A DNA stretch of 64,000 nucleotides from a virus: positions 1-64,000 of the IMG/VR virus record IMGVR_UViG_3300046535_000406; one strand, 5' to 3'. Below, in pieces: positions 3,035 to 63,210 of this stretch (its first letter is position 1; each line of letters begins with the position of its first letter). Made by a program: the position numbers and the translations under genes. The notes below the pieces were generated by a model, which was given only the letters and a program-made list of their open reading frames with translations, had not been told where the DNA came from and made no database searches.

Positions 3035-3035
3035 G

Positions 3036-3469: not shown

Positions 3470-3491
3470 CTCAGAGGGGTATTGCGAAGCG

Positions 3492-32066: not shown

Positions 32067-32272
32067 CGCTTGTCCCTCCTGTCCACGACGTGCTGCGCTG
32101 CGACAACCTCGTCCATGAAGCGCGTTACCCGGTCCGATACCACTGTCGCACGCATCGCAGCACGCTGTGCCGCCCGCGCCGCGTCAGCCGAAGCACGATG
32201 GGCTTCGGCAGCCTCCGAGGCAGCATCAGTCATGCTGTTCAGGGCCTCCCGGAGCTTCTTTAGGGCGTTCAT
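32063..32272 (-). CDS. small helical protein (69 aa)
   Basis: ATG at 32272 (ATGA overlap) with GGAGG RBS. Confidence 0.55.
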   Translation of the reverse strand: MNALKKLREALNSMTDAASEAAEAHRASADAARAAQRAAMRATVVSDRVTRFMDEVVAAQHVVDRRDKR

Positions 32273-32691: not shown

Positions 32692-32710
32692 GGGACCTCC
32701 TCAGATAGAG

Positions 32711-32740
32711 CGAGGGGCCGGGCCGAAGCCCGACCCCTCG
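32711..32740 (-). terminator. hairpin with cUUCGg tetraloop after the major capsid gene
   Basis: CGAGGGGTCGGGC-TTCG-GCCCGGCCCCTCG; no clear T tract. Confidence 0.6.
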
Positions 32741-32762
32741 GAACTCGGTGCGAGAGCGAGGT

Positions 32763-33755: not shown

Positions 33756-33840
33756 CGGGGACTCCTTTCGTTACTGGACTCGGGTCACCCGCCGAGTCGC
33801 CCGGGGGCCGGTTGCCATCCGGTCCGTTGTACGGCTTGGG

Positions 33841-34479: not shown

Positions 34480-34497
34480 GTGTCAGTCCCTCTCGGC

Positions 34498-34866
34498 TTA
34501 CGGCGCGAAGCTGGACTGGCTGGCGTTCAGCAGCACGACCGACTTGCCGCCCGAGTCGCGGTCGGTCAGGACCTTGCCGATCACGCGGTAGCCGCTGGTC
34601 GCGGTCCGGGTGAGCGTCACGGTCGTCGCGTCGGTGCCACCGGCGGCGATGTTGGCGTAGAGCAGGTCGCCCTTCACCGTGCTGGAAGGCACGGCGATGT
34701 TGTGGGCGCCTTGGCAGTCGAGCACGGTGCTCTTGCCGGACTTGCAGGTCGTGATGACCACGCCCACGAAGCCCTCTTGGCAGCTGAGGGTGCCGCCCGT
34801 CAGGTCCGCCGATGCGGAGGCGACGGGAATGTGCCGGAAGTCTCCCTTGTACGTGCTGGCGGGCAT
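34498..34866 (-). CDS. capsid decoration/cement protein (DUF2190-like)
   Basis: G.VGV...G.H....GD.LY...IG pattern; between scaffold and capsid genes. Confidence 0.7.
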   Translation of the reverse strand: MPASTYKGDFRHIPVASASADLTGGTLSCQEGFVGVVITTCKSGKSTVLDCQGAHNIAVPSSTVKGDLLYANIAAGGTDATTVTLTRTATSGYRVIGKVLTDRDSGGKSVVLLNASQSSFAP

Positions 34867-34917
34867 CTAGCCCCTCCTCTACTTCCGCAGCGTCCGTGCG
34901 CTGCTGATTGGGTTGAC

Positions 34918-35214
34918 TCAGCCCTCGTCGGGCTGAATGTCCTCGTCGGCCTCGTCGGCCTCGTCGGACTGGCTGTCGGCTCGGTCCTGAGCCGCTTGGC
35001 GAGACTGCTCGGCGAGAGCGGCCCCCAGCGCGTCCGAGGTGTCAATCCCGAGCGTGTGGTTGCCGCTGGTCCCGTCCATGACGGTGCCGTTGATGCGTGC
35101 AAGCTGCACGGCGGTCAGGCCAGCTTCGAGCATGGTCTGATCGTTCTCAGACAGACCGTCCTCGACGGGCGTCTCATCCGCGTCGTCCGTCTCGGTGGCC
35201 TTCTTGCGTGCCAT
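34918..35214 (-). CDS. acidic head-associated protein (98 aa)
   Basis: GGAGGA RBS; contains a GLSE site. Confidence 0.55.
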   Translation of the reverse strand: MARKKATETDDADETPVEDGLSENDQTMLEAGLTAVQLARINGTVMDGTSGNHTLGIDTSDALGAALAEQSRQAAQDRADSQSDEADEADEDIQPDEG

Positions 35215-35230
35215 TGGTTCGGTCCTCCGC

Positions 35231-40668: not shown

Positions 40669-43600
40669 TCACCAGCCGCTGGACGTGCTGTTCTGGACCA
40701 CCGGGCCGCTGTAGTTCTTGGTGTATTCCCACGGGTCCATGCCCGCCTTCCGGGCTTCGTTGTTCCACATGCTGCCGTCGTACTTGGACAGCCGGATGAT
40801 CTGGGGCAGCTGAAGGTCGCGGGCGATGATTTCGCGCTCGCCCTCGGTGGACTGGAACCAGCTGGGGTTGACGAAAGAGGTGGCGTAGAAGTTTTCGAGG
40901 TTCATCTTGGCCGTGATCATCACGCCCGCGTCCTGCACGAAGCCCGCGCTCAGGCCCAGCGAGCCGCCGCGACCTGACGGGTAGCCCAGCCTGCTGAGTC
41001 GTTCGTAGTACGCCTGCGCATCCGTCGTGTCGGCGACGTTGCGCACCCACAGCCACGTGCCGGTGGCCGGGTCGTAGGCGTTGCGAATGTCCTTGATCCA
41101 CTGGACGCTGCTGTTCTCGTAGCGCGGGTCGAAGGTGGCATGGAGCACGGCCCACTGGTTGATCTTGGAGGCGTAGGCGTAGGCATCGGCGTCCGTCTTG
41201 GAGGCGATGAGCCCGGCACCGTAGGTGCGAGCCGAACCCATCTTCTCGACCGTCTTCTCGCCCGACATGCCGCTGCCGGAGTAGCTATGCACGTATCCGA
41301 GGGCTTCCTGCATGGACGACTTGCTCGGGCGACCCGGCACGTCGGAACTCGGGTCCAGTAGTCGCCGCGCCTCCTTCAGGGGATCGGTGGTCGGCGACGG
41401 CAGCAGGTCGCGGTCCCACTCGGCCATCTTGTCGATGTGCTGCTCGTCGTACGTCAGTTGGAGCCGGAAGACGCCGCCGTCCTGAAGCAGCCAGTCACGC
41501 CACGACTGCGGCACATCGGCGCCCTTGGGACCGGCCATGGCAGCCTTGACTTCACTCGCGAAGAAGGTCTGGTAGTCGCCGCGCACTTGGTTCTTGCGCA
41601 GCAGCGCGGCCTCGCGGAAGGCGTCGTACGACTTCTGGCGCAGGCCCTTCCAGTCGTTCAGCACCGGCTGAATGATCTGTAGGAACTGCTGGTCCGACAT
41701 GGCTTCGAGGTGGCCCAGCGTGCGGGCGATGGCCTTGGGATCGACGTTCGCCAGCAGGGCCGGGTTCTTCCGGGCGTCGCGCCAGAACATGCTCCACATG
41801 GGCAGCAGGCCCATCTCGCCGCCCTGCCCCTCGTTGGCCGGGTCCAGCGTGTCGAACTTGCCGCCCATGCCCACCCAAGAGCGCGTCTTGTCGATGCCCC
41901 AGAGGTGGCCGTCGCTCTGGGACACCATCCAGTTGCCGATGTGGGCGTCGTCGTTGGCCGTCAGCCAGTCAAGGACCGACTGCTGGAAGAACTCGGTCGT
42001 CTGGTCTGGCGTCAGTTCGCCGGGGCTCTTTACGTGCTCGATGTCCGGCACGAGCTTCTGAAGCGCGCCGTTGGTCATCTTGCCGTTGATTTCGAGGGTG
42101 TATTGCTTCACCGGCGGCGTGCGCAGGTCGAGCAGCCCAGCCAGCTGGTTCACGGCCACGTCGGTGCGCGCTCCGCGACCAGAGGCACCGATCTTGAACA
42201 TCCACTCGTTGCCCTGCGAGTCAATGAAGGCGGCCTTGGGCGACTGGCCGCCGAGCCCCTTGGCGCTGAGCAGCTTCAGGTCCTGCGGCACCGGCCAGAT
42301 GGTTGGAGCCACGATCGGGGTCGCGACCGTCCCGGCGGCGGAGGACGCGCCCATCTCGGCTTCGATGTCCTGCCGCATCATGTTGGCCCGGTCGGCGGTC
42401 ACCCTGATCCATGCGCGGCTCGTGGTGGCCGCTTCGGCGCCCTTGTAGCGCAGCAGCAGGTCACGCAGAGCCGGGTTGGCGCTCAGCACCTGCTGGTCCA
42501 CTTCGAGCACGGTGCCGGGCGTGGCAGCGATGTTGGAGAGCAGCGAGTGGAGCATCCGGACGGTGGAGGCGGTGACCTCGGCCTCGGTCGTGCCGGAGGC
42601 GATCGTCAGGTTGGTCCATTCCATGATCGGCCCGGTGCGCAGCCACTCGGCTTCGACCTTGCCGCCCGCCCAGCTGGACACGGCTCGCAGGCCGTTGGCG
42701 CGGATCGTCTCGCCCCCGGCCAGCCACAGGTTGTCGGGGGTTCCGCCCATGATCTTGATGGGCTGGTTGGCGAGCACGCCCTTGGGCAGGTCCACCAGCT
42801 GGGGAGGCTTGGGGATCGCCGCGAGGACTTGCCCCTGAAGGAGCGGGTCTTCGGTGTTGGCGAGCAGCGCGTTGGCGAGCGTTTCAGCCTGCGGCCCTTC
42901 GAGCCTGACGCCGGGACCCAGTGCGTCGAAGAAGCCACCGCCCTGCCCCTCGGCAGGCCGGACCCTGAAGTCCGTGCCGCCCGCACGCAACAGCAGGTCC
43001 TTCATGCCCGGGTGCGCGTCGAGGACCGCGTCGATCACGTACAGGCGGGAGGCGGCCATCACGTTGCCGTCTTCGTCCACGCGCTGGGCCGTCTTCTGTG
43101 CGAGGTCCAGCAACTCGGACCACGTGGCGTCGTTGACTTCCTTCGCGGTGGCACCCAAGCTCTCGGCGCCGACCAAGCTCACCAGCGATCCCGTGGTGCT
43201 GACGGCGTACAGGGTCTTGACTTGGTTGCCGCCCGACACGGTGTACGTGGCTGTCTGGATCGTCTGTGGCAGCTTCGTCCCGGGCACGATCTGCTGGGGA
43301 CCCGGGAGCGCCGCCTCGGACGCACCGAGGTGGTGGGTCGCGATCATCTCGGAGTGGTCGTAGCCCAGCAGGGTGTCGAGCCGGGAGGACGCGGGGATCA
43401 GCGGACCCTGAGCTACCTGCGACAGGGACTGGGCGCTGACCGGCGGCACGTAGAGCGGGCTGTTGGGCGTGATCAGCTTGGCGTTCGGGACGTAGGGCAC
43501 GATCGGTGCCGCCTTCAGGGCGCCCGGCACCATGGTCACCGGCGTGCCGTCTTCGAGCTTCACGCTGACCGTGCTCATGGTCGTGGAGGTGACGGTGCCG

Positions 43601-46600
43601 TTGCCCTGCGGCGTGATCACCTTGTCGCCGAACTTCCACGGGTTCGGCGCGTACGGGCTGGCCTTCAGTTGGTCCAGCGTGGCCGTCTGGATGACGGATG
43701 AGCCCTTCATCGAGAGGGTCACATCGCCGACCGGGCTGATCGAGGTGATCATGGCGTTGACGCCATTGGGGAGCAGCGCGTAGTCGCCGACCTTCCACGG
43801 CTGGGGCAACTGCTTCAGCAGCAGCTGGTTGTACGTCTCGACCACCGGCGGCAGGCCCTCGGGTGCCACGTTGACGAGCAGCCCGGACGGAGAGGCGGCG
43901 TTGGTGACCACGCCCATCTGGCCCTTCGGCGTCATCACGAAGTCGCCGGTCTTCAGCGGATTGGCAGGCGGCTCGGGAGCCTTCAGGTCGGGGATCGCCG
44001 CGCTGGCCGGGTTGCCGCCCACGTCGAGCGTGATGGTGTCGGTGCTCACGTTGGTGACGGTGCCGACCTTGCCGCTGGGAAGCTGGCCGATGTCACCCGC
44101 CTTCCACAGCTTGGGGATCGGCTTGATGTCCTGCCCGACCAACGTCTGCGTGGTGCCGTCTTCGAGCGCCACGGTCACGGTGGCCGGGTTCACGGTGCTA
44201 TCGACCGACACGACCTCGGCGAGCCCGAAGCCGGAGGCGAACACCGGGTCGCCGGTTTCGAGGTTGCCGACGCCCTTCTGGACGATGGTGACCGAGGTCT
44301 TGCCCAGCTGCTGCACGTTGCCCGTGGTGTTGCCCGAGTAGAGGGCCTTCAGGTAGTAGCCGGTGTCGGGTATCTCGGTGACGACGTAGGGCTTGCCGCC
44401 GGTGTAGTAGACGACCGTGTCGCCCACGGCCACTTCGGATGCGGGCCACGTCTGGACGTAGGACAGCTGCGACATGGGGATGTTCGCGCCGGAGCCGTAG
44501 CTCTGGATGGTGACCTTCGCCTTGCCGTTCTTGAAGACCTTGACGATCTTGCCGTAGTTACCGTCCTGCTTCAGCACCCAGTCGCCCACGGCGAGCTTGT
44601 GGGCCGAGAGGGCCGCCTTGGACAGGGTGGGCGCAACGACCTTGGGCACGTTCACGCCGGTCGGCGTCAGGAAAGCTACGTTGGTCCACGACTTGGGATA
44701 CGTGTCCCAGTCCACCAGCACGGTGCTGCCGCTGGACACCTCGGTCACGGTGCCGGTGCCGAAGCTCGGGTGGGTGACCTGATCGCCGACCTTCAGCCCA
44801 GCCGGGGCCGTGCTCGCCTTCACGGTCGCGACTGTCCCCGGCTCGACCTTGGTCAGGGTCGAGATGCCGACCAGCTGCTTGCCGTTGGCCCCGAAGTCCA
44901 CCATCGCGGTCGGGCTGTAGGGGGTCTTCTCAATGACCGTGCCGGTGCCGTAGAGGGGCTGAGCCACGGTGTCCCCGGGCTTGGGGACGTACGTCTCACC
45001 GGCGGACGGCACGGGCTTGACGATGCTGGCGTAGGCGCTGCCGGGTCCACCCTTGGCGGTGCTGACCGTGCCGCTGCCCTCCCACTTCACCGTGACGGCG
45101 TTGTCGCTGACATTGGTGACAACGCCGCTGGTGCCGGTGGGGGTCCACTTCACCTTGTCGCCGACGACGAAGGTCGCAGGGACTGGCTCGGGCGCCACGA
45201 ACGGGGTCAGGTCGCTCTCCGCCTTCAGGAGCGGGTAGCCAGTCACGTCGGAGGTCACGATGACCATGCCGCTCGGCTGGTTCAGCTGGGTCACGGTCGC
45301 CGTGATGGGCTGGTTTCCGGCGTCAGTGAACGTCACCTTGTCGCCGATGGCGTACTTGGGCGCGGCGGCTGGCTTCAGGAGTTCCGTCTTCACGGTCAGG
45401 GTGCCCGTCCCGGAGCCCACTCCTGCTGTCCCGAGGGTCACGTTGGCCTTCGTGCCGTCGTCGGTCACGTAGGCGATCTTGCCGGTCTGGCCGGTCGGCA
45501 CGGTCACCCAGTCGCCTTGGTGAAAGCCCGGTTGGACCTTGACCAGCGTCAGGTCCTTCGTCTCCTGAGTGAGGTTCGCCGTCATGGTCGTGACATGGGC
45601 CGTCAGGCCGTCGGGAGAGAGGTAGTTCACGACGCCCTCGTCGCCGCCGTAGGTGAGCACGGAGTCGCCGACCTTGATCTGAGGCTTGGGCGTGAGCTTC
45701 GCTGGGTTGTAGATTTTCGATGACGGGGCGTTGGGCGACGTGAGCGGGTCGAACGACACCTCGACGGTGGCCGAGTTGACTTGGGCGATCGTGCCGATGC
45801 CGTAGTCGTTCGTCAGCACCTTGTCGCCGACGGCAAACTTGGGCGCAGGCGTGGTCGCCGTGATCCAGCCCTTGTTCACGCTCTCCGGGACCAGCACGAA
45901 TGGCGTGCCGTCCACGCCCATCGCCTGCACGTTGCCGGTCACCGGGAACAGCTTGGTGACGGTCAGGTTCTGGCCGCCATAGTTGACGTGTTCGCCGATG
46001 CGGAACGGCGCCGGGTTGGCGTTCTCCAACTCGCTCGGCTCGAACGTCACCTGTGTGGCGTGCTCGTCGTTCAGGATCACTTCGATGTCCAAGCCGTCAG
46101 GCGAGATGGCCGTGATCGTGCCCGTCTCGCCGTCGAAGGCGCCACCGATCGCCTTCACGGTGACCTTGCCACCGACCTTGGGACCGACAGCCGCCGACAA
46201 CTGGGAGGTTGGGAAGTAGCCCCATACGGGCTCGCCCGGGAACTCGACTCCCCACGTCATCTCGCCGTTCACGATCCCGTGGGTGCCCATGACGGTCCCT
46301 GTCTTGCCGTTCACGCTGACGGTGTCTCCGGCCTTGGGGGTAAGCGGGCTCGGGACAGCGGCAGGCGTCAATGTGCCTGCCTTGGCAGAGACGATCACCT
46401 CGTTCTGGGCGAAGGTCCCCGTACTCCCATCGAGCATGGTCACGTCCATCATCTGGCCGTTCAGTGACACGTAGTTCACGGTGCCCATCTGCCCGCCGTA
46501 CGTGGCGACATCGCCGGTGGCGTCGCCGCCGCCGGGCTTGACCACGATTTCGTCGCCCACCTTGGCGAGCACAGGCGGCGGAGCACCGACCAGCTTCAGG

Positions 46601-49600
46601 TTCACCTGCGGCGACTCAAGCCCCTGCGCTCCACCGAACCCCGGCCACTTCACATTGGCGGTCTTGGATACGTCGTTGATCGCCACGACCGTGCCGCCCT
46701 TGTATGCGGAGTTGCCGTTCATGTGGTCCACGATGTCGCCGACCTTCAGGCCAGCTGGCTCAGCCGGTTTCGCGAGCAGCATGTCCTTGCCGAAGAAGGG
46801 CAGGCCCGGCGCACCGGCAACGTGGTATTCGTCCACGCCGTCGATCGAGGCGATCACGTCCACCTTGCCGTTCGGGAGCACGACCTGATCGCCGATGCTG
46901 AAGGCCGCCTGCTTGGTGGGCTCGGCCACCTTCGTCACGCTGCCCGCCGGAACGATGTCGCCGGGCGCGAAGGTGTTGCCGATCGACAGCTGCACGTTGC
47001 CGTTGTCGAAGGTGTGCATGACCTTGGCGTACTTGCCGTCCGGCTTCAGCGCCCAGTCTCCGACCTTCAGGCCCTCGGGCGGGATCGGCGTGAAGGCCGG
47101 GACCACGCCCACCTTCACGGCGTGCTCGCCGTTCATGTCGGCCCAGAGATTGCCGTCTGAGTCCTTCACGTCGATCAGGCCGTTCGGCTTCACGGCCATG
47201 ACCTCGTACGTGGGCGGACCGGAGCCGACGAACTTCACCTTGTCGCCGACAGCCAGTGTCGTCGGCGGCGGCTCGATCACGCCCTTCGCGAAGGAGACGG
47301 CAGGCGCGACCTTCGAGAGGTTGGGGTTGGTGGCGGCCTTGTGCACGACCGCGCCGGACTGGGTCGTGATCGTAAGCTCGCCGGACTGGCTGATCTGGGT
47401 GACGGTGCCGGTCTGCATGGGCGTGCCCAAGCTCGGCTTCCCCCACTGCACCTGATCCCCGAGGTTGTAGCCGCCCGCCTTACTGCCCGGGAAGACGACG
47501 TTCGGGGTGGTCGCGGTGTAGGGCGTCACGTCCTCGGGCTTCAGCTTGAACGTCGTGCCGCTGACGGAGGTGACGCTCAGCTTCCCGTTGTGGTCCACGG
47601 AGGTCACGAAGCCGTTCAGCCCCTTGCCCCAGACGATGTGATCGCCTGCCGCGTAGCTGCTTGCGACGGTGGTGGCAGGGACCGGCTTGGGCGCTGACTG
47701 GATCGTCGGCGCGATGCCGGGCGCAGCCTTGGCTTTGACTTCGTCGGCCTTCAGGTCCTTCAGCAGGGCCTCGGCGTCGAGTCGGCCCATCTTGATGTCG
47801 CCCTTGGTGGCAGCGGTGCCGTAGGCCACCTCGAACAGGTTGCGCAGGTCGAGCGGCATCCCGCCCACGATCGACGCCCGGACGACGGTGTATTCGATGC
47901 CCGGCGTGGTTTCCATGGCCTCCGCCATGCGCTTCATGTGGGCCAGCAGCAGGGTGGGCGTGTAGTCGCCTTCGGCGCTTGACACCTCGATGCGCTGGCC
48001 GATCCGCCGCCACTGGACCTTCAGGGCCTGATTGCCGTCGCCGTAGATCGTCTCCTTCAGGGCCTTGTTGGCCGTGCCCGCGAGGTGCACCGGGTGGATC
48101 GTCTGCTCGATGTCAGGGATCGACGCCAGAGCGATCGCCTGCGGGTCGTAGCCCTCGATGGTGCCGAGTGTCGAGAACGTCGGAGCGACCGGCGGTGGGG
48201 CGACGGTCACGATGGTGGGCGCCTGCCCATCGGCCACCAGCTTGTCCCGGATGGCCTGCACGTCCTCCGGCTTGAACGCCATGTCGTTGGTCTTGGACAG
48301 CACGCCGCCGTACGCCTTCAGGGTGTCGCGCATCGACAGGCTGGTCGCGAGGAAGGCGTCGGAGTCAATGCGCAGCCGGTACAGGGAAGGCGTCTTGTCG
48401 AACAGGTCCGCCGCGTGCTGGATGAACGCGAACGCGACGTTGTCCGCGATGTGCTCGGATGGCGCGGTCAGCTTCAGAAGCTCCACCCGGTTGCCCAGTC
48501 GGCGGTAGTCGAGCGAGGAACCGCCGCCCCAGACGACGTGCTTGACGCTCGTGTTGGCACCCGACAGGTAGGCCGCCTTCTCGTTCGTCTCCACGCCCCA
48601 GTGCATGGCGAAGTTGTCCACCACGGCGGGGTCGTATCCGGGCACTGAGCCGAAGGCGAGCGTCACCGGGACAGCGTTGGTCGCGGCTCCCACCTCGGAG
48701 TCGAGGTCGGACACGATCTGGTCCACGTCGGACTTCAGCAGCTTCTGGCTCGGGTCCCAGCCAGCCTCCTCCAACCATGTGCGCACGGGACCCGGTTCGA
48801 GGATCGGCCCCTTCAGGTTCAGGTGAGTCAAGGACGGCGTCGCGTCCATGTAGTCGTTGAACTTCCGCATCTGGGCGGCGAACACACCCAGCTGGTCGCC
48901 GGTGGTCTGCCATAGCTCCAAGCGGTTGCCGATGCGCCGCCACTCCGCCGTGCCGCCGTCGATCGCGCCGGTGCCGTAGTGCGTCTGCTTCATGGTCGTG
49001 TTGGCGCCCGACAGGAGCGAGTGGCCGCTGACCGACTTCTCGTACTGGACGGTGTAGAGGGACGCCGTCAGGGGGTCGTACGCGCCGACGGTGACGGGAT
49101 TGGGCACTGCCAGCGTCGCGCCGGTCAGCACGCCCGTCTGGGGCGGCACAGGGAGCGCCTGTGGACTGGCGATGCCCGACGCCTGCTTGATGTCCTTGGC
49201 AAGCTGCTGGGCGTCTTCGTAGGGCAGGATGATGCGGGTCTGGGAGCCGCTGAGGTCCAGCGATCCGTTGTAGTGGTCGAGCAGCATGTTCTTCCAGTGC
49301 TCATCGATCACGGACAGCGCCTGATCCTCGTAGATGAGCTTCTGCCCGTAGCTCAGTGACTCACCGGCGTACTGGGTGACGACCATGAAGGTCGTGTTCT
49401 GCATGGCGATAGGCGAGGTCAGGTTCAGGATGCGCATCGGCTTGGTGGCGTTGGGCGGGTAGTCGAGCGTCCCGCCGATGTCGAACTTGCCCGCCTTCCA
49501 TGACAGGCTGAGCGCGCCACCTCCGAGGGCCAGCGTGTCTGGGATGGCTCCGATGGCGGCTGCCATCTGGGCGATGTCCTCGGTGGCCCAGCCTGCGAAG

Positions 49601-52600
49601 TCAATCGACCCGGCGACCTTGGTGCCACCGGCTGCCAGCGATCCGACGGTGATCAGCTGGGTGTCCGTGGAGAGTTTCGTCGCGAGGTCCGTGGCCTGCG
49701 CAGCCGTCAGCGTCAACCAGCCGTACTGGCTCTCGACCGCGCCCGCCTGCTTCATCAGGTCGCTCAGCGTGGGCATGGCGTTGAGGAACGAGGTGGGCAC
49801 GATCAGGTTCTTTGGCGCGATCTTCAGCGGGTCGAGCGGGAACGAGGCGATGCCGGACAGCGCGGCCAGATACGAGGCGTCGCTGCCCAGCGTCGTGCCG
49901 CCGATCGAGTAGAGGACCAGATCGCCTTGCAGGTTCTTCTTCATCGAGGCGTACAGGCCGCCGATCGCGCCGCCGACGGGCTTGACTTGGTACGCAGACT
50001 CACCCGTGGCGAGTTGGGTCTGCCAGCCCTTGTCGAACTCAGCCTTGCTGACGCCCAGCTTCTGGAACAGGCCGCCGACTGCCCCCGGCGGACGGGTCAT
50101 CTTCAGTGTCGCGGGGCTCGTCACGAGCGAAGTGCCGTCGGGGAGCTTCATCACGATCATCCCGCCGGACACGCCCTGCGGCGGAGTGATTTCGCTGACC
50201 ACGCCCGAGGAGCCTGACGGCGTCGTCACGTGGTCGCCGATCTTGAACGGATTGGTGGGTACGACAGGCGTCGGTGCGGCCCCGGCTGGCTTCACCAGCG
50301 CCCAGACAGGCCACTTGTCGATGTGGCCGTCGGCGTATTGGACGGTCGCGCCGTAGAAGTCGAGGCCAGTGATCGACTTGATTTCGACCTTGGTGCCGCT
50401 CGGCAGCAGGGCCGTGTCACCCACGTTCCACGTCAGGAACGGGTGCAGGTTCTTGGCGCTCACGTCCTGCGCGGTCGCGCCGTCGAGCTTGGTGACCGCG
50501 TACGTGCCGTTCGGGTGGATGGCAGAGATGATGCCGTCTTGGCCGTCGAGCGAGGACACGCCGGTGCCAGAGATGTGGACCTTGCCGTCGATCCGCAATG
50601 GCGGGCCGTGCTGGACCATCACCACCTTGGCGTCGCCGATCCCATAGGCCGTGGTCGAGCCCCCGGTATCGACCGCGATGGTCAGGATGCCGTTCGGCGC
50701 GATCTGGGTGACCGTGCCGGTCAGGCCCTCGATTTCGACCTTGGCCCCCACGGTGATGCCCGCAGGCACCCCGCCGGGAGCCATGACGCCGGGCGCCGTA
50801 CCCGGAGCGGGCGCCAACTCCTCGGCCTTGAACGAGACATAGGGAGCGCCGGGCAGCGCCACGTCGTAATACGTCTCGCCGGACGAGAGCAGCCCCACGT
50901 GGGTGATCGAGCCGACCTGCCCGCTGAACGCAGCGCCCTTGGTGACCAGCACCGCATCGCCGACCTTGAACGGCTCGGTAGTCGCTGCCGGGACCCGCGC
51001 CAGTTCCGTCGGTGCGACGGGGAAGGCGTTGGCCGCAGCGCCCTTGACGGTGATCAGGCCGCTGGGCGAGACTGCTTGGATGGTCACCTGCTCCGGGTGG
51101 GCGAAGCCGGGTGGCTGCCAGAGAGCCTGATCGCCGACCTTCCACGGCTCGGCAGCAGTCGTCACGGCACCCGTGCCCGGCGTAAGGCCCGGGTACTTGC
51201 CGAGCTTCAGGTCCTTCTGAACCTCGGAGACGGGGCTGGTGAACTTCGCGCCGCCCGTGACGGCGATGACTTGGTTCGCGTCGATGGTCTGGACGATCGC
51301 TCCGTGTTGGAGCTTGTCGCCGACCTTCACCACGTTGTCCGGGTTAGCCCACGCCCAAGCCTCGCTGCCGACAGCCTTGACCTGTATCTGGACCGGCGTG
51401 ATCCCGGTGTCGATCTTGGTGATCGTGGCGTGGCCCAGCGTCGGGTGGATGACCGCGTCGCCCACCTGCGGAGCCACCGAGGACAACTCGCCGACGGTGA
51501 AGCTCTTGTAGGCGCCGGACGGCAGGGTCACCTCGATCACGTCACCGGGCAGGACCTTGTTGACCTTGCCCACGCCGAACGCGGTCTTCACCACGTCGCC
51601 CTGCACGAAGGTGGTGACGGCGGCCACGGGGGTGGCTGTTCCGACCGCCCACGCCGGGCTGCTGAAGCCGGGTTTCACGAGCGACGACACGGCCATCCAC
51701 GTGGTCGAGCCATCCGGAAGCTCCACGAGCGCGAGTGTCCCGACCGGGTCGATGGTCTGAACGGTGACCATCTGGCCCTTGCCGCTGATCTGCTCGATGA
51801 CCGTGTCGCCGACCTTCAGCGGCGGCTGGGTCACGCCGACATCCGGTACGTGCTTCAGGCCAACGGTGGTCGGGTCGATCAGCAGCCCCGCTCCCGCTCC
51901 GGGCGAGATGTCCCACGTGATGCCGACCTTGCCGTCCGCCACGTTCGTGATCGTGCCGGTGGCGTCCCACATATTCGCGACGTGATCCCCGACCTTGAAC
52001 GTGGCCGACGGCTCGACGTGCTTCAGCATGACGTTCGGGTGCGTGGGATCGAAGGCGGTGCTCGTGATGCCGCTGTCCCACGTGACGGTCACCTTGCCTG
52101 CGTCTGGGAACACGGCAGCGATCACGCCCTTGGTGCCAGAGAGGCCGCCGGACTGGACCTTGTCGCCGACGCGGAAGCCAGCAGCAGAGGGAGCCGCAGG
52201 CGCAGTAGGCGCACCGAGCGACCCGGTCTTGGTGAGGGGAACGCCGAGCGTCGTCGCGTTGGGGTCCACGTGGATGGAGGGTGAGGTTCCAGTGGCCCAG
52301 TGCACGTCGATGAAGCCATCGGCATGGACGAACGTCACCGCGCCCTTCACGCCTGCGCCGTTGACGAGCGTGTCGCCGACCTCCCACGCGGGCTGCGACC
52401 CGATGAACGTCAGGTTCGCGTTCCATGGCTCGGTCGCGAACAGCTTGCCATCGGCGGTGGTCTTCAGGAACAGGATGTCCGGCTCGATCTTGGTGATCGA
52501 GCCCTCGTTGCCGAGATAGTTGACGAGGTCGCCGATCTGCCATTGGTGGGCCAGCGACAGGTCGGCGATCGAGAAGGTCTGCTCCCCGAAGCCGATCTTC

Positions 52601-55600
52601 ACGAGGGCCTTCTGCCCATCGGCGCTGATCGAGGCGATCAGGGCGGGCTTGTTGTCGAGGGTGTGCACCATGTCGCCGGGCTTCAGCGACGTGATCGCCT
52701 TCACGATCGGCTTCAGCTGGTCCGCGAGGAAGTAGCTCGTCACGCTCGGGAACTTCACGTAGAACGTGCCGCCCGCCACGGCATCGATCACCGTGCCGAT
52801 CCCATAGGTCGCGTGGAGCACGGTGTCGCCGATCGCGAACGCTGCCGGGGCGACCGAGGCGACCGCCGCCACGTCGGTCAGGTCGTTCAGCAGCGAATGG
52901 ACGAGGCCGATGGTGTTGGGGCGGCTGAGTATCCAGCCACCGAGCACGCTCGACGGCTTCAGCCCGGCAGCCGTGAGCATCTGCTTGGTCTTGTCGCCCA
53001 GCACGTTCATAACCGCGTCATCGATGCGGACCGCGAGGTGGTTGACCCCGTACAGGGCGGGGTTCTGCATCACGCCCGCGAAGTATTGGAGTTGCCCCAC
53101 CAGCGCCGCCGCCACGTCAGGCTCGCTTACGTTCTCGCCGGTGATCACTTGGTTCAGCCGGAGGTTGCCGTTGGGCGACGTGTCCCAGTAGAACTCCACG
53201 TCGCCGCCCTTGCTGGTCGTCCACACCTGCTTCTGCGGGTGCGACTTCAGGTCAGGGCCGTCAGGCGTCGGGATGCCGGTCCCGGTGCCGTTGACGAAGT
53301 TGTACGCCTCGTGCTGGTCGAAGCCCCACTTCTCGCCGATGCCCGTGGTGCCTTGGGCCGACAGCTTGTTCGGCGTGGCCGTGACCACGTGGCCCAGCGT
53401 CTGATCGAGCGACTTGGCCTGCGCAGCAGGGTGCATGGCAGCCGTGGTGATCCCGGGTGGCGGCAGCAGTGACGTGATCGAGACGTTCTGGTCGGTGGCC
53501 TTCCGGAGCAGCTGAAGCTGCGGAGCGTCAAGCCGCCACGAGCCACCCTCGCTCTTGCTGCCGAGCACGGTGAACAGGTCCGCCAGCTTGGCCGTCTCGG
53601 TGGTGGAGACGGTGACTTCGACCTCCATGCCCTTGTCGGCCTGTCGCAGGATTTCCTTCAGCAGGATCGCCCGGCGCGTCTCGATGCCGGTGACCTTCCA
53701 CTCGGGCACGCCCATGCGGACGAAGCTGCTGGCCGCGTTCGGGTAGAACAGGTTGATGGGCTGATCGGTGGTGCCGATCTTCCAGTGCACGCTGCTCAGG
53801 ACTTCGTCCGGTGCCTTGCCTTCGCTGACGAACAGCGAGGTGTCCCATGCGGGCTTGGCGACGCCGTACGTCTCGAAGAACGGGTCCGCCGGAGCCTCCA
53901 CGCCATGGGTGGCGAAGTGCGTTGGCGTGTTCGTGCCGACGATCTGTCCCACGGCGATGGTCGGGTCAGCCGGTCCCAGCTTGGCCGCGAGGGTGTCAGT
54001 GACAGCCGGTGTCAGTGTCAGTGTCGGGGCGTCAGCCGACAGGGCGGTGGGATCGGCCATGATCTTGGCGACCTTCACCGCATCGCCGTTGCCGATCAGC
54101 AGGGTCTTGCCGAAGCCGGGCACCTCGCCCGGGATGCCCAGCAGGGCGAAGTCAGCCTTGCCGAAGCCCATGGAGCCCTCGATCGAGAGGTCCCAGCCCT
54201 TGGGCAGGTTGGTCACCATGGCGAGCATCGCGTTGGCCCGAAGCTGGGCCATGGCCGGATCAGCCGCCGCCACCAGCACGCCGCTGTCGTTCTTGAACGC
54301 CGTCAGCACCCAGCGACGTGTCTTGGCCGCTTCGTCGTCGCGGAAGAACACCGAGGACGTGCCATCTGGTCCGCCCGGAAGCTCGACCTTCATCAGCCCG
54401 GTCGGCATCGAGGTGGGCGTCCAGACGCCAGCCGATGCCTCAGCGATCTGGGGGTCGTACCCCAGTTGCTCGTGGAGGAACGGCGATCCGCCACTCACGT
54501 CATCGGGGGACATGCCCAGCAGGCGGGCAGGCGGCTCGGTGATCGGAGGCGCGACCGGCGGCAGGCCAGCCTGTTCGAGGTAGGAGTCGAGCACCTTGGT
54601 GTCGCGGGAGTCGGGCTTGTCGTAGCGCAGCAGGACCGGGCGCACCTCGGACGGAGTGCCCAGTCTTACGCTGTACGTCTCCTTGATCGTCTTGGCCCAC
54701 GCCGGACCGCCGCCTGTCCGGTGGGCCACGTAGTAGCGGGTGATCGAGCCGTTGTCGGTGGCGGTGAAGTCACCGAGGTACTTGTCAAGCTCCACGCTGA
54801 AGCCCATTTCCTCACGGGCCTCGCGCACGGCAGCCTGCGCGGTCGTCTCGTTCAGGTCCACGCCGCCCTTGGCGAAGGTGTTCTCGTAGCCCGCCCAGCG
54901 GTTGCGCGGGGAGATGATCCACATGCGGCCATCGGGCTCGACCAGCACCACGCCTGCACGGAGGCTGTGTGTGCCCTTCTTTGCCACGTCGTAGGCGTCG
55001 ATCGTGTCCAGCTGCTTCTGGCTGTAGCCCAGCGTGTCCTTCCAGAACGCATCGCTGTTGGTGTCGAGCCCACCCTTGACGGCCTTGTCCAGCGCATCGA
55101 GGTCGGCCTTGGACTTGGCCGCGTAATACTGGCTGCCGATCTTCTGCTCGAACAGGCCAGCCTTCTTTGCGGCGTCCGACTCGGCTTGGCTCCACGTGAT
55201 CGCGTACTTGGCCTCGCCCGACTGGACGGCCTCCCAGCGCAGCCACGCCTTGTCGGCGGCCTCGCGCATGTCCTTCAGCTGCCAGTCCGCCACGGCGCCT
55301 TCAGGCAGCGGAGGCTCCTCGGGCACATGGCCGGTCCAGTCAACCGGCGGCGTGTTCAGCGGAGCGATCCCTTCGACGGGGATGGGCTCCACCGTGGTGC
55401 CGGGTTCGAGCACCGGCGCCTTCTCATCGATCTTGAACGTCAGCCCGTCGAACGGCGTGTCAGGCTTTGGCGGGGCCGTGAACGACTTGAACGGGACGCC
55501 CGTGTATTGGTAGCCCGGCACGACCCCGGTGTCCGGCACGAGGTCTACGACCGAGACGTTCTCGGCCAGCCCAAGCTCCTTGCCGTCGGTGACGCGCACG

Positions 55601-58600
55601 ATCCGCCAGCGCAGGTTGCGCGGCAACTGGACCTGATAGGTGGCCTCGCCTGCGCTGAGCCGGAAGCCCTTGGGCACGTGCATTCGCTGGACCACCCCGC
55701 CGGGGATCGCGAAGTTGTACGCCTTGTTGCCGCTGCTCGTGGCGAACGGGATGGCCTTGTCCACGTAGCTGTCGCCGACCTTGCCCAGCGCGCCCGCCTT
55801 CAGGCTCTGGCCTCGGTACAGGATGCCCGGGGCCGTCGTCTCGGCTTGGGTGGACAGGCGGTCGTAGTAGTCGAGCAGGTCCTTGCCCTTGACCATGGTT
55901 CCATCGACCGACTGGTCGGCGACGTGCTCCCCTGCGCGAAGGGACTTGTTGATGGCGCCCGTGTCCACCGCGTTCCACTCGGCGGCGTCCGCGATGGGCT
56001 TCAGGTTCGGTTCCAGCCACCACTCGTCCTTCGGGTTCAGCAGCTGGGTGACGATGCCAGCCGAGCCCTCCGGCGCAAACTCGGCGGCGGTGGGCGCTGG
56101 CGGCAGTGGCACTTCTGGCTTGGACCACTGCGGCGTGAGCTTCTTGTCCCAGAGCGTCGCCGCAGCCGGTAGCACCTCGGTGGGCGCCTCGAACGTGCTG
56201 CCCTTGATGAGCCACACCTGCCAGTCGGTGGGCACGACGGACACGTCCTTCTTCCACAGCGTCGCCATGTTCCGGATCAGCTTGGTGGCGCCTTCGCGCT
56301 CAGCCTCGGGCAGAGCGAGCACGGCGTCGCGCACCGCCTGCGGCGTGTTGTTCTTGAAGAAGCCGGTGTCCTTGGGCTTCATCACGTCCGTCAGGTTCAC
56401 GCTCGGCAGGTCCTGCGGAGAGAAGCCCAGCAGCGGATCGGCTGGCTTGGCCGGGTAGAACTTGTCGAAGATCGCGGCCAGCTGCTTCGTCTCGGGCTGG
56501 TTCATCCCCTCGATGGCGCCCGCGAACGTCTCGGCCCATAGCTCGTGCTGGTTCGAGCGGGCGTACTTCGAGATGTGCGTCGTCTTCAGGGCAGGCCAGA
56601 GGGTTGACTTCAGCCACGGCTCCAACTCCTGCCGCACCGGCGCGTAGCGATCCGCGCCCAGCCGCGAGTGGAGGTTCATGCCCAGCCATTCGTGGCCCAT
56701 CTCGTGGGTCACCACGTCGGAGGCCCACTCGTCGGCGTTGGTCGCGATCTGGCCGCCGACGCTGAACGGGACGTTGGCCTTGTCCCGCAGGAACGCCTTC
56801 TGCAAGGCCGTCGAGTCGGTGAACATGGCGCGGTTCAGGAACACCTTGGAGCCGGGCACGTTGGGGTCGATGCGGGCCACTTCGGCGATCGTGCCCTTGC
56901 CCGGCGCGTAGGTGCGCAGCGCGACGCCACGGAAGCTGGGGATCGTGCCGAAGCGGCTGAACAGCATGTCCATGCGCTTCGCCAGCACCTTGCCGGTGTC
57001 AAACGGCACTTCGAGCAGGCCGCTCCAATCCGTGCCCGGGTAGCGGGCCTCCATGCGCGCCACAAGCTCGGACACGTTGGTGACCTCGGACACGGTCGCG
57101 CCCAGATCAGCCGGTGGCGTGTACGGGAAGGTGCCGCCGTCATCGAGCCACGCCTTCCACGCTGCGCTCGGGTGGTCGGCGATGGTGGTGCGATCTGCGA
57201 ACAGGTCCTCGACCGATTGACGCAGGTTGTGCTTGCGGCTCAGCAGGTCGGCCTTGGCGGCGTCCGTGGTGAGCGCGTCACCGACGGCGTTCAGCAACTG
57301 CTGGTCGGTGACGCCATCGAAGCGATCGAGCGTGGTCGCCACGTCCTGTGGGGTGAGGCGCAGCAGCAGGTCCGGGGAGTGGTCGATCCTGCCGAACATC
57401 GACGCATCAGCCCGCTCATAGAAGTCCGTCAGGGATGGCGTCAGGCCGGAGCCCAGCCGGTCGAAGCCGTAGCCCTTGTCGATCGCCCACACGCGCCCGG
57501 AGTCGTAGAGGTAGTTCCCGCCGTGGCCGTCGGCGTTGTGGATCAGGTAGTCAACGAGCCCGTGGCCGAACAGCTGCCGTTCCTCGTCGTGGCCCAGCAC
57601 CCGGGCCAGCGTGGCGGCGTCGGGCGCTCGGACCCAGTAGCTCTGGGCGGTGCGAGGCACGAGTGCCTGCCACGCATACCACGGGTTGTCGCCGGTGCCG
57701 AACGCGATCCGCGCAACCGGCGGAGCATCGAGGCCAAACAGGGTGGTGACGCGGGAGCCTGCGACTTCCTCCGAGACGCCGTAGGGCTTCAGCAGGAACT
57801 CCTGCCCGGTCGGGTCCTTCAGCAGGACACGCGGCGTGGTGCCCTTGCCCAGCTTGTCCGCGCTGCCCCACTTCCAGCCGGGCAGCAGGCCGCCGGTGCC
57901 CCACTTGCTCGGGTCAACGAGCACCTGCTCGGTCGGGAAGGCGCCGAACTTGGTGACCGGGAACGTAATCTCGGGCGTGTGCCACACACCCCCTTCGCGC
58001 ATCAGCGACCACGCCTCGGTGTCACCGGCCAGCGTGCCGGGAATGTAGTCGGGCCGGGTCATGGCGGTGAACGCCTCGGCCCAGAACTCCTCGTCCGAGG
58101 TGTCGGCGTAGGACTTCAGCTTCAGCAGGTTGTCGCCCCGGAAGTCAGCCTTGAACGTGTTCCAGCGATCAGCGCCCAGTCGCTGAGAGAGGCGGTTCGA
58201 CACGAGGTGGCCGTACTCGTGAGCCCATGCGTCGCCGAAGGTGTTCGAGACGGTGATCTTCCCGGCCAGCCCCATCTCGGGTTCGAGGTTGATGCGCCCG
58301 TCGCTGAAGGCTCGGCCCGCGTAGCCCACGCCGTCGCTTGACTCGATCACGGACAGCGCGCTGTTCAGGGAGCGGTCGATGCCCAGCTGGTCGAATAGCT
58401 CGGCCTTGGCTCGCAGCATGTCCCACTGGGCAGACGAGAACGCCTCGCCCGCGAGGTTCTTCATGCCCGGGAACAGGGCCATGGCGTCGGCCATGGGGTG
58501 CTCCGGCGACGGCTCGAAGGCGGTCTGGACGATGGCGTTGGCGTTGCTGACGTGCGGCTCCGCCGCAAGGGCGCGGAAGCTGGGCATCTCCGGCATCTCG

Positions 58601-60780: not shown

Positions 60781-62839
60781 ACGTCGCCTCGGCAGCATCT
60801 GCGGCCTGCCGTGCAATCTCTACCAGACGGTGGACGCGGACCCGCTCGTCCGGCGGAGCCCACGACTCCTGAATGGGAGGCGCGGTGTCCTGCTTGACTC
60901 CGGCCTTCTGTGCCGCCGTCGGCATCATGCCCGGCACCGGCGAGAGCTTCGTCGGGAAGCCGCCCTGAGCCGCCAGTGGCGTCAACAGCGACTGCGGGTC
61001 GATCGGCTGTGGGCCGGTGGCGCCCTTCATCATGCCCTCGGGCAGCGGCGGGAACAGGCGGTCCATCAGCTGGTCCACGTCCTCGATTTCGAGCGCGACC
61101 ATGGCGATGGACAGGACCCACTTGCCAGCCTCGGGGTTCTGAAGCGGCAGCATGTCGTAGAGCGCCTTCAGGGCCGTGAAGTAGGCCGCAAGGTCCTTCT
61201 TGATGATCGGCGGGAAGACGACGCTCACGTACCAGTCGATCGGCTTGCTCGGCCCCGGGTCTTGGTCCGACAGGGCCGTGAAGACCATCGGCTGGACGGC
61301 AGGCGGCGGCGGCGGCACGAACGGCTGGGGCGGGCCACCCGGCGCGGCGGGGTCGGCAGGCTTGGACGGATCGGCAGTCGCCTTGGCAGGGTCGGCGCCG
61401 TTCACCTTGGCGCTGTCGCCCTTCACGTGAATGTTGATGTCGCCCTCGTGCAGTTGCACCGGCGAGCCTGCGCGACCGGCAGGCGGTCCACCTGCGCCGA
61501 CGGGTGCCGTGGTCGGACCCGGGTTCAGCTGAGGCGGTCCAGCTGGCTGTGCGGACGAGGTGTCAAGCACCTGCTGCGCCGTCATCGACCGCTCGCTGTA
61601 TTTCGTGGAGTCGTCGCGTGGGCCGAGCTTGCCAGCGTCGTGAGCCGTCTCCAACGCGAAGGTGACGATGTCCGACATGATGTCGCCCAGCCACTTCTGC
61701 CACGACTCGTACATCTTCAGGAGCGGAAGCTCCATGGCGGTCGCGGTCGCGAGGTTGGCGTTGGCCTCGTCGCCGAAGTAGTGGTTCGGGATGCCGCCCA
61801 TGCCCGAGCCGCCCATCATGCGGAGGATGCGCTCGTCGGCCAGCGCGTTCGTGCCGCCGGTGTCGTTCTTCATCCATTCGAGGGACGAGTAGTCGTTCTC
61901 CACGATGGTCGAGCCCGGCGCCGGAGCAGGGTTGGTGTCGTAGCCGGTGGCGCTCACCTGCATTGACGACTGAAGCCGGGCGACCTCGGCGGCCACATCC
62001 TGAGCCGTGCTGTTCTTGCGCTTCTTCTTCCACGCGAACGTGGCAGCTGCGTCAGTGATCGTGGAGCGGTTCTCCATGAACCGCTTGTGCGCGTTGACCC
62101 AGTCGAGCGCGGCCTCTATCTCGGACTCGCCCATCTTCGACTTGCCACGGCGGCAGAGCATGACCAGCCCGTCCTCGACCGCCTTGGGCGCGGTCTGGCC
62201 CTTGGGGTCCAGAGGAGCGTCGTTGCGCCACTCGCGATACCAGATGAAGTCGTCTGCCGTGGTGGCGGAGTAGGAGCCAACGTTGAAGTCGTAGCTGCCG
62301 CCCAGCTTGCGCACCTTCACCCAGAGCGGGATGCGCCAGTTCTCGGGATCGGTGACCACGTCCTCGATCAGCAGCGAGTCGATCGAGCCAAGCTCGACCT
62401 TGCCTTCATCGGTGTCGGGGAACATGACCAGCACTTGCAGGCCGTCGGTGAAGGCACCCTTCAGGAAGTCGGACTGGGCCATGTAGCCGAAGAACGTCTG
62501 CTGGTTCACCGGGTTCTGGACAAGCTCGTCAACGATCTTCGCGACACGGGTCTTGTTGGCGGCGGAGAGAGTCACGCCGCGCCCGATGGTGTAGTTCACG
62601 AGCAGGTTGGACGCCTGCTTCACGAGCGGGCTGCGCCGGGCTGCGCGTCGCGCACGGCGGATCGTCGTGATCCGCTCGTCTCGGGTCAGGTACGTCTCGT
62701 CGCCGGAACGGTCGTACGAGAGGTTCGTCCAGTTGGCGTCTTCGAGAGCGCGCTCGACCGTCAACAGGGCTTCGCGAATGCTGACCGGCTTGGGTCCAGC
62801 GAAGGCGGGAGCGCCGTTCGGCTGCACGGTGAGTCCCAT
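60764..62839 (-). CDS. portal protein
   Basis: RSPLVKQASNLLVNYTIGRGV, GESEI..A..W, GIPNHYFGD...NLATA..ME motifs; first head gene; ATG 62839 preferred. Confidence 0.88.
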   Translation of the reverse strand: MGLTVQPNGAPAFAGPKPVSIREALLTVERALEDANWTNLSYDRSGDETYLTRDERITTIRRARRAARRSPLVKQASNLLVNYTIGRGVTLSAANKTRVAKIVDELVQNPVNQQTFFGYMAQSDFLKGAFTDGLQVLVMFPDTDEGKVELGSIDSLLIEDVVTDPENWRIPLWVKVRKLGGSYDFNVGSYSATTADDFIWYREWRNDAPLDPKGQTAPKAVEDGLVMLCRRGKSKMGESEIEAALDWVNAHKRFMENRSTITDAAATFAWKKKRKNSTAQDVAAEVARLQSSMQVSATGYDTNPAPAPGSTIVENDYSSLEWMKNDTGGTNALADERILRMMGGSGMGGIPNHYFGDEANANLATATAMELPLLKMYESWQKWLGDIMSDIVTFALETAHDAGKLGPRDDSTKYSERSMTAQQVLDTSSAQPAGPPQLNPGPTTAPVGAGGPPAGRAGSPVQLHEGDINIHVKGDSAKVNGADPAKATADPSKPADPAAPGGPPQPFVPPPPPAVQPMVFTALSDQDPGPSKPIDWYVSVVFPPIIKKDLAAYFTALKALYDMLPLQNPEAGKWVLSIAMVALEIEDVDQLMDRLFPPLPEGMMKGATGPQPIDPQSLLTPLAAQGGFPTKLSPVPGMMPTAAQKAGVKQDTAPPIQESWAPPDERVRVHRLVEIARQAADAAEATYGRGD

Positions 62840-62982
62840 CACCAGCACCTGAAGTGCGCCCCATCCTGAACGTCGAAGCTCGGCACGCCCGGATGGGGCA
62901 GAACGCCGCTCCTCAAGAACCGGGGTTGCCGGTCGCGGGGAAAGCCTATCACGGGCGTCCAGACTGCTGGTACTGTGCGCGC

Positions 62983-63210
62983 ATGACCCGCCCCCATCCA
63001 CGCCAAGCGGACGCGCTTGCGCTCGCCTCGGGCATCGCCATCGTCTCCGTGGCCCTCATTGCCGTCGCAGACATCGTCGCCCACGGATCACTCGAACCGG
63101 CGGTGATGACGCTCGTGGCCTCCACGATCGCGCCTCTGACGCCCGCCCTGATCATCCGCTACGGGATCAACCCGAACCGTAGCGGGCACGAGCAGAGCCC
63201 GCCCCAGTGA
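62983..63210 (+). CDS. small 2-TM membrane protein (75 aa)
   Basis: Hydrophobic; GTGA-coupled to the next gene; TGGTACTGT ends 6 nt upstream of the ATG. Confidence 0.55.
   Translation: MTRPHPRQADALALASGIAIVSVALIAVADIVAHGSLEPAVMTLVASTIAPLTPALIIRYGINPNRSGHEQSPPQ

Follow-up and report, generated by a model that had tools for sequence, protein, structure and literature searches.

Forty Tudor/SH3-type barrels nearly devoid of arginine in a giant protein encoded beside the portal gene of an uncultured phage

How phages pack very large proteins beside pressurised DNA and pass them through a narrow tail is poorly understood. A sequence-level handle on this question is provided by an uncultured phage, represented by the IMG/VR record IMGVR_UViG_3300046535_000406 (109,497 bp, linear, CheckV completeness estimate 87%), of which the first 64 kb, hereafter called the window, were analysed. 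One open reading frame (ORF) of the window, P0001, codes for a protein of 6715 amino acids (aa), or 6703 when counted from the start used by the protein collection, and takes up 18% of the phage genome. About 2300 residues of this protein (35%) are organised in two tandem arrays of small barrels. What is the use of 40 barrels in a single chain, encoded directly beside a portal gene? The explanation favoured here, to which a probability of about 0.45 is assigned, is a variable beads-on-a-string segment, with a mainly physical role, in a polyvalent protein that would be packaged in the phage head and probably injected. Polyvalent MuF proteins and the Tudor/KOW fold are known already; the scale of the array, the evidence that units are gained, lost and shuffled, and the exclusion of arginine are new.

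Two arrays of discrete barrels

A hidden Markov model (HMM), built from the [VIL]GD-anchored segments of P0001 and iterated on the same protein, delimited exactly 16 units in array 1 (matches over aa 2659-3577) and 24 units in array 2 (aa 4387-5782; Table 1). A first-pass annotation of this DNA, made from the sequence alone, had proposed about 16 plus about 24 SH3/KOW/Tudor-like units, and its count, coordinates and description proved correct; the single span that it gave, 43510-52839, holds the arrays, but about 806 residues lying between them are not barrels. Independent E-values (i-Evalues) ranged from 1e-14 to 2e-5 for 38 of the 40 units and were weak for unit 32 (6e-4) and unit 36 (1.0); two weak stray matches, at aa 1300 and 2392, were the only ones in the other 4396 residues of the protein.

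The units recur with a period of 46-76 aa (mean 58) and are separated by linkers of 0-21 aa, rich in Pro, Ala and Thr. As already noticed in the first annotation, which had also described Pro/Ala linkers, they are strongly diverged from each other: pairwise identity has a median of 30% and a maximum of 54%, and mean column identity is 22%. Conservation in at least 90% of the units is limited to the G and D of the xVGD turn; the remaining conserved columns are alternating hydrophobic positions and turn glycines, so that the conserved columns look like core and turn positions of a barrel. At the DNA level no tandem repeat was found in the arrays, where similarity is confined to stretches of about 45 nt, with 60-77% identity, around the GD codons; thus, an assembly artefact can be dismissed. 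The units are old as well as diverged.

Unit 33 was modelled with AlphaFold2 (AF2), using the 40 units as the alignment. The model, with a predicted local distance difference test (pLDDT) value of 96.1, is a five-stranded Tudor/SH3-like barrel, composed of four DSSP strands and a short C-terminal bridge in SH3-like order. Its best Foldseek matches were the C-terminal Tudor domains of UvrD and PcrA (7egt_B, 9dqs, 5dma and 7egs_B; T. thermophilus UvrD, M. smegmatis UvrD1, G. stearothermophilus PcrA and E. coli UvrD are among the sources), with TM scores of 0.76-0.82, root-mean-square deviations of 1.4-2.1 Å and 24-29% identity, followed by the Tudor domains of PHF1/PHF19, ribosomal KOW-type barrels, MutS2 and Mfd. 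In a structure search independent of Foldseek (VIA), many KOW, Tudor and PWWP barrels reached Z values of 7-8.4 and no family stood out; the PcrA/UvrD Tudor domains (7.6-7.9) were tied with KOW and PWWP barrels, the NusG/Spt5 KOW barrels scoring 7.0-8.2. As far as the model goes, the fold class is secure, the family is not.

Four units (aa 5339-5568) were also modelled together, on an alignment of ten non-overlapping paralogous four-unit frames. AF2 returned four separate barrels, with linkers at pLDDT below 50, a predicted TM score of 0.41 and no packing between units. The predicted separation argues for discrete beads, as first annotated, against a continuous solenoid or fibre.

Variable unit number and exclusion of arginine

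A profile of the units was searched against 1.84 billion representatives and gave 687 hits. Among the top ones was the ortholog P0003 (5452 aa), which shows 49-54% identity with P0001 in the N-terminal, NUDIX and C-terminal blocks and has the same central segment between its arrays. A search with the C-terminal block added four more giant proteins, P0153, P0154, P0155 and P0156, of which P0153, P0154 and P0156 come from Logan assemblies; the N-terminal, NUDIX and C-terminal blocks are common to P0001 and these relatives, which measure 4805-7742 aa. The number of barrel units is 16 plus 24 in P0001, 5 plus about 17 in P0003, about 6 in P0155 and none in the other three. Thus, the comparison of repeat number among relatives, which had been suggested as a check in the first annotation, yielded about 40, 22, 6 or 0 units.

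P0154 reaches 7742 aa, yet it has no barrel units; P0153 and P0156 are likewise barrel-free.

Between P0001 (units numbered G) and P0003 (units numbered Q), some orthologous units are collinear (G17=Q06, G19=Q09) and others cross from one array to the other (G04=Q16, G31=Q05). The clear pairs are 50-57% identical, and most P0001 units have no clear ortholog in P0003; within P0001, the three-unit block G19-21 is similar to G33-35, pointing to a block duplication. Judged from these sequences, the arrays probably grow, shrink and shuffle by duplication of units and blocks.

A further hit, P0005 (1210 aa), combines a weak Phage_Mu_F match (E 0.00099, 20.3 bits, below the cut-off of 29.6), an ADPrib_exo_Tox domain and about 9-11 barrels. 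Its gene lies on the 41.8-kb IMG/VR phage contig L001 (65% GC), behind a terminase gene and a portal-like gene, its start falling on the stop codon of the latter; hence, the combination of a MuF-type head protein with an Arg-poor barrel array is also present in an independent and unrelated phage lineage. Searches for related loci with the central segment (viral contigs), the NUDIX block (genome contigs) and P0005 (metagenome contigs) were empty.

Arginine is nearly excluded from the arrays, an observation that is new. The 2319 aa of the two arrays contain 5 Arg residues (0.2%), four in the 922 aa of array 1 and one in the 1397 aa of array 2, together with 6.3% Lys. In the rest of the giant protein the values are 4.3% Arg and about 4.5% Lys (binomial P 6e-37 for the depletion of Arg in the arrays relative to the rest), and in 36 other phage ORFs they are 5.5% Arg and 3.3% Lys. 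Both arrays are devoid of Cys, and their net charge is -38. The longest Arg-free runs measure 872 and 593 aa; in the other phage ORFs, such runs stay within 165 aa. The arrays of P0003 (1170 aa) hold 2 Arg residues and 6.5-6.9% Lys, and the barrel part of P0005 (520 aa) holds 3 Arg residues and 9.6% Lys. Since the unit profile favours Arg-poor matches, a low Arg content in other database hits means little; what counts is the contrast within single proteins. The exclusion, of about 20-fold, matters because it occurs in two unrelated lineages of head proteins and in phages of 65-66% GC, where Arg is otherwise favoured over Lys. Being acidic and Arg-free, the arrays would seem ill-suited to general nucleic-acid binding, and such a composition would suit a segment kept from adhering to packed DNA.

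Many standalone phage proteins of 44-74 aa share the fold of the units. The unit profile also retrieved metagenomic KOW-like arrays and stramenopile proteins with 10-17 Tudor_5/Agenet repeats. The latter came up at E values of 1e-31 to 1e-34; at profile level, therefore, the repeat can be recognised as one of the Tudor class, and tandem arrays of this fold exist elsewhere. Unlike the eukaryotic arrays (Tudor_5, Agenet, Tudor_3), the phage units match neither the Tudor_5 nor the Agenet model and have no conserved aromatic cage; the organisms and the context are unrelated, and the scores are sums of many weak per-repeat matches. One metagenomic protein, P0075 (1091 aa), carries a KOW-like barrel array and, near its C-terminus, a Sigma70_r1_1 domain (45.9 bits), and might connect barrel arrays to the transcription machinery.

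Possible roles of the barrels

The observations that are directly supported, namely the Tudor/SH3-like fold, the separateness of the units, the conservation of core and turn positions, the exclusion of Arg, a copy number that varies and is shuffled, and the position beside the portal gene, are best fitted by a mainly physical role, in line with the last option of the first-pass annotation, an easily unfolded chain suited to passing through the tail. The N-terminus of the giant protein is probably a MuF-like anchor for binding the portal; enzyme-like blocks come next, and the barrels would form a long, soluble and acidic string, non-adhesive to DNA, that keeps the N-terminal, central and C-terminal blocks apart. 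Such a string could sit beside the tightly packed DNA and be fed through the portal and the tail channel. Because a bead is about as wide as DNA, passage might occur either in the folded state or after easy unfolding; little force is needed to unfold SH3-type barrels when they are pulled from adjacent termini. Packaging and ejection are suggested by the position of the gene, by the concept of polyvalent proteins, which have been proposed as head-packaged early effectors (PMC5512222), and by the detection by proteomics of a 2811-aa polyvalent protein (gp47) in virions of phi24B (bioRxiv 10.64898/2026.04.10.717836); a spacer or threading role is likewise proposed. A common ligand for all 40 units is unlikely, and specific binding by single units, including that of RNA polymerase (RNAP) by units 1 and 33, or a role of single units as decoys, may occur in addition.

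Several points weigh against this explanation. The presence of the giant protein in the virion, its ejection and its processing are inferred from context. The Pfam model for Phage_Mu_F/SPP1 gp7 (PF04233) finds no match at E <= 0.5 in aa 1-600. Flexibility of the string would have to be read from low AF2 inter-domain confidence with ten paralogous rows, which, on so shallow an alignment, is weak evidence. The array of P0005 lies at the C-terminus, where its role cannot be only that of a spacer between blocks. Some unit pairs of P0001 and P0003 are as conserved (50-57%) as the enzyme blocks (49-54%), possibly including surface positions, and these pairs hint at unit-specific functions. Finally, the exclusion of Arg might have other causes, such as immunity to arginine-specific ADP-ribosyltransferases of the phage, solubility or avoidance of proteases.

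Resemblance to RNAP-binding domains was examined unit by unit, since the first-pass annotation had compared some units with the Tudor-like domains of CarD and UvrD/PcrA and had proposed a multivalent platform for RNAP, ribosomes or nucleic acid. A Pfam scan found nothing above cut-off in the arrays, and PHROGs gave nothing informative there. When single units were scanned, PcrA_UvrD_tudor (PF21196) matched 3 of the 40, CarD_TRCF_RID (PF02559) matched four and KOW (PF00467) one (E 0.0049), all below threshold: the best PF21196 score was 21.2 bits, for unit 33, against a gathering score of 23.9, and PF02559 reached at most 17.0 bits per unit against 23. A six-frame search of the genome gave 19.6, 17.6 (unit 1) and 14.1 bits for PF21196, over profile positions 1-18/21 of 48, and 16.6 (unit 1), 15.5, 13.7 and 11.4 bits for PF02559, over the first 19-24 of 57 positions; the best E values of the latter were 0.003 for a single unit and 9.7e-4 for the genome. 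In both families the matched positions correspond to the beta1-beta2 hairpin. The six best matches of unit 33 among 177,635 PDB sequences were all UvrD/PcrA Tudor domains, each of them non-significant (E 0.08-0.34). Designed beta-propellers, which appeared at the top of a PDB profile search, were rejected as summed chance matches to a 'DGT' turn.

In PcrA, residues H681, W684, K712 and L714 are required for RNAP binding (PMC5397179); the comparison with the units covers the first two. The His and the aromatic residue that align with H681 and W684 are both present only in units 1 and 33, the same two that carry the full signature GDxVxHxx[FWY]GxGxV; unit 9 has His and Leu, and units 8, 27 and 32 have the aromatic residue only. 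In most units the hairpin reads xPxGxxGxV, which is closer to a KOW-like hairpin. Co-folding of unit 33 with residues 30-450 of RpoB from Streptomyces coelicolor, a stand-in for the host protein, gave a score of 0.01 and a mark of 0.32, which speak neither for nor against binding. The resemblance to CarD and UvrD/PcrA is real for a few units, among them the two that the first annotation had quoted (units 33 and 1); it does not extend to the array as a whole, in which the full signature occurs in 2 of 40 units and three to four units have sub-threshold Pfam matches limited to the N-terminal half. Units 1 and 33, and perhaps 9 and 27, seem to keep a face of the PcrA/UvrD/CarD type and may bind a host protein such as RNAP.

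The UvrD/PcrA C-terminal Tudor domains (5DMA, 7EGT, 7EGS, 9DQS; PF21196) and the phage units have in common the SH3-like five-stranded barrel of about 50 aa and, in units 1 and 33, the beta-hairpin motif hxVGDxVxHxx[FWY]GxGxV. Unlike them, the phage units score below the Pfam cut-off, are internal and occur as 40 tandem copies instead of a single terminal one, and are nearly Arg-free, 38 of them lacking the full His plus aromatic signature; no helicase domain was found by Pfam in the giant protein. With the RNAP-interacting domain of CarD/TRCF (Mfd; PF02559) the units share the fold class and the N-terminal hairpin motif, which four units match weakly; however, the scores of 11-17 bits stay below the cut-off of 23, the profile is matched in part, and the domain architecture is unrelated. 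An identification of the barrels with the LPD29 or LPD30 domains of Iyer et al. was rejected, as these gave only sub-threshold hits, which lay in other proteins.

Binding could be the main function of the barrels in two ways. Many or all of them might act on one host target (the beta subunit of RNAP, ribosomes or nucleic acid), as a high-avidity platform or sponge after injection; unit 33 finds its closest folds in the RNAP-binding Tudor domains of UvrD/PcrA, units 1 and 33 align with H681 and W684 of PcrA (PMC5397179), and sub-threshold matches exist to both RNAP-related families, but the signature is confined to two units, the Pfam matches do not go beyond the first 18-24 profile positions, the units have no conserved surface column in common, an acidic and nearly Arg-free composition is unusual for barrels that bind DNA or RNA, and three relatives do without any barrels. 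With conservation confined to core and turn and a net charge of -38, the platform for a single host factor or nucleic acid, as first proposed, is not supported, and such a multivalent binder is considered quite unlikely. The alternative is a library, in which each barrel, or a small group of them, would bind a different host protein of defence or housekeeping, so that a panel of small inhibitors is delivered with the DNA. Tudor/SH3 barrels are classic protein-binding modules (PMC5397179), the surfaces are highly variable on a constant scaffold, the fold is shared by the many standalone small phage proteins, and the best-kept ortholog units are preserved like the enzyme blocks; relaxed constraint, however, would account equally well for a unit number that goes from 0 to 40 and for the many units with no clear counterpart in P0003, and there is no known partner. 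A diversified library is regarded as unlikely, though less so than the common-target binder.

Two other proposals start from the composition or from the length of the arrays. According to one, the exposed arrays are kept free of Arg as a protection against packaged or fused arginine-specific ADP-ribosyltransferases, with the lysines possibly serving as decoy substrates. The phage does encode an ADPrib_exo_Tox protein (26242-27498), such a domain is fused directly to the Arg-poor barrels of P0005, and P0154 and P0156 carry PF03496; on the other hand, the latter two are barrel-free in spite of their transferases, the rest of the giant protein retains its 4.3% Arg, arginine specificity of the phage transferases is an assumption, and the proposal accounts for the composition of the arrays and not for their existence. 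Self-protection appears very unlikely as the main explanation. According to the other, the barrels line the capsid, organise the DNA, or form, after ejection, a conduit or tether spanning the envelope, whose length is set by the number of units. An Arg-poor, Cys-free composition rich in Thr, Val and Gly resembles that of extracellular beta-repeat proteins, and 40 units and the tail would both measure about 200-235 nm, if a unit is roughly taken to be about 5 nm long and each residue of the tape-measure protein (1568 aa) to account for about 0.15 nm of tail; moreover, a conduit has been proposed for phi24B gp47 (bioRxiv 10.64898/2026.04.10.717836). However, no features of oligomerisation or membrane binding were seen, and the AF2 model has no inter-unit packing; this structural role is held to be improbable to a similar degree.

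The beads-on-a-string explanation can be extended to a more specific proposal, which as a whole is thought unlikely: Arg-free barrel strings would be a dedicated threading and tether device of head-packaged giant effectors. Selection would have favoured the lack of Arg and Cys and the negative charge for letting a chain of thousands of residues slip past the packed DNA and through the tail channel, the number of units would set the physical length, possibly matched to the dimensions of the tail or the envelope, and a few specialised barrels would dock the payload on the host RNAP.

Among known systems, the closest are the polyvalent proteins (Iyer et al. 2017, PMC5512222) and the MuF polymorphic toxins (Jamet et al. 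2017, PMC5576092), which have 2-15 domains per protein. P0001 resembles them in being a multi-domain giant, in the location of its gene beside that of the portal protein, in the combination of a probable MuF-like N-terminus with enzyme-like modules, of which NUDIX exceeds the Pfam cut-off and the HipA/PI3K-like kinase and zincin-like regions stay below it, and in having relatives that carry ADP-ribosyltransferase domains. It differs from them in its array of 40 units: SH3, Tudor, KOW or barrel arrays are not mentioned in PMC5512222 and PMC5576092, and a wider text search of the literature found no report of Tudor-type arrays in ejected phage proteins. The virion RNA polymerase of N4 (about 3500 aa, PMC13434306), of which P0001 has about twice the length, and gp47 of phi24B (2811 aa) are also very large capsid-carried proteins, for which delivery with the DNA was shown or proposed; no report of barrel arrays in them was found. 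If the exclusion of Arg reflects non-adhesion or easy translocation, it could serve as a design rule for deliverable cargo and as a marker by which injected proteins are recognised in metagenomes. Small inhibitor domains could be drawn from the array, should single barrels bind host factors.

The rest of the giant protein and its locus

Table 1. Position of the arrays, of other parts of P0001 and of selected neighbouring genes in the window.
Feature	Position	Strand	Residues of P0001 (aa)	Description
Portal gene	60764..63001	-		Directly upstream of the giant ORF and overlapping its start; basis, tblastn to annotated portal proteins
Giant ORF P0001	40669..60816	-	6715 in total	GC content at third codon positions 0.90; both arrays inside; probable MuF-anchored polyvalent head protein
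Cys/His motif of probable MuF-like anchor	59308..59454	-	455-503	Invariant in all six relatives (alignment)
HExxH zincin-like region	58060-58221		~866-919
Kinase-like region 1	about 57000-57870		~982-1275	Paralogous to region 2, 26-29% identity
HExxH zincin-like region	56482-56595		~1408-1445
NUDIX domain	54745..54966	-	1951-2024	PF00293, 37.6-39.7 bits, cut-off 21.1
Array 1	50080..52845	-	2658-3579	16 barrel units; self-HMM and unit alignment
Unit 1	52702..52845	-	2658-2705	Second unit with full GDxVxHxxYGxGxV signature
Non-barrel segment between arrays	47662..50079	-	3580-4385
Unnamed domain of ~155 aa, three tandem copies	47707-49125	-	3898-4370	Self-BLAST; domain HMM, i-Evalues 1e-63 to 2e-74
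Array 2	43486..47661	-	4386-5777	24 barrel units; self-HMM and unit alignment
Unit 33	44656..44802	-	5339-5387	Most PcrA/UvrD-like unit; modelled unit
Fourth copy of the ~155-aa domain	42319-42723		6032-6166	After array 2; domain HMM
Kinase-like region 2	about 41480-42280		~6180-6450	Sub-threshold HipA_C and PI3_PI4_kinase matches
Probable major capsid gene	32763-33755			Downstream of the giant ORF
ADPrib_exo_Tox protein	26242-27498	-		418 aa; 78.8 bits, above Pfam cut-off

Of the domains of the giant protein, only NUDIX scores above its Pfam cut-off. The two HExxH regions give sub-threshold matches to zincin-like families (ATLF-like, E 0.0056; Peptidase_Mx, E 0.018), and each relative has one to three copies of the kinase-like region; the precomputed Pfam annotation of the relatives includes HipA_C, PI3_PI4_kinase, ADPrib_exo_Tox and NUDIX. 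Several unrelated enzymatic or effector domains in one chain, some of them sub-threshold, and a gene adjacent to that of the portal protein are also what characterises polyvalent proteins in head modules. The N-terminal anchor is called probably MuF-like because Phage_Mu_F clusters made up 26 of the 30 hits of a protein-atlas feature search (score 0.92) and the NCKC end of the Cys/His motif aligns weakly with the end of the Phage_Mu_F match of P0005, with no Pfam hit to add. The unnamed domain of about 155 aa contains a conserved W-R-R-[IL]-G-N/Q-R strand and has no match in Pfam.

The genome has a GC content of 66%, and its likely genes lie on the minus strand. The portal protein shows 22-29% identity (tblastn) with those of Arthrobacter, Brevibacterium, Clavibacter and Stenotrophomonas phages, and the giant gene occupies the position that is usual for genes of MuF/gp7-type minor head proteins. 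Further downstream than the capsid gene are those of a cement-like protein, of the ADPrib_exo_Tox protein, which is one among several small effector-like genes between the capsid and tail modules, and of the tape-measure protein; with the portal gene upstream and these genes downstream, the locus is the head module of a long-tailed phage. Neither the whole giant gene (megablast) nor the first 700 aa of its product (tblastn) found a match in the phage database.

A motif of the form DHFYGAWxGG..(A/S)xGGHP is present in 12 copies in the phage genome, eight of them in the window (25554-37144) and four beyond it (G000:C1 74654-76689). A role of the barrels in docking the phage proteins tagged with this motif was considered and dropped, as the barrels have no shared conserved surface and the motif is often internal to ORFs. 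Some ORFs contain it twice, such as 26242-27498, at aa 65 and 232; an acidic stretch, 'E(S/G)GG.DD', usually precedes it, and the giant gene has no copy. Such a placement is more in keeping with a signal for processing or for a junction than with an address tag at the N-terminus.

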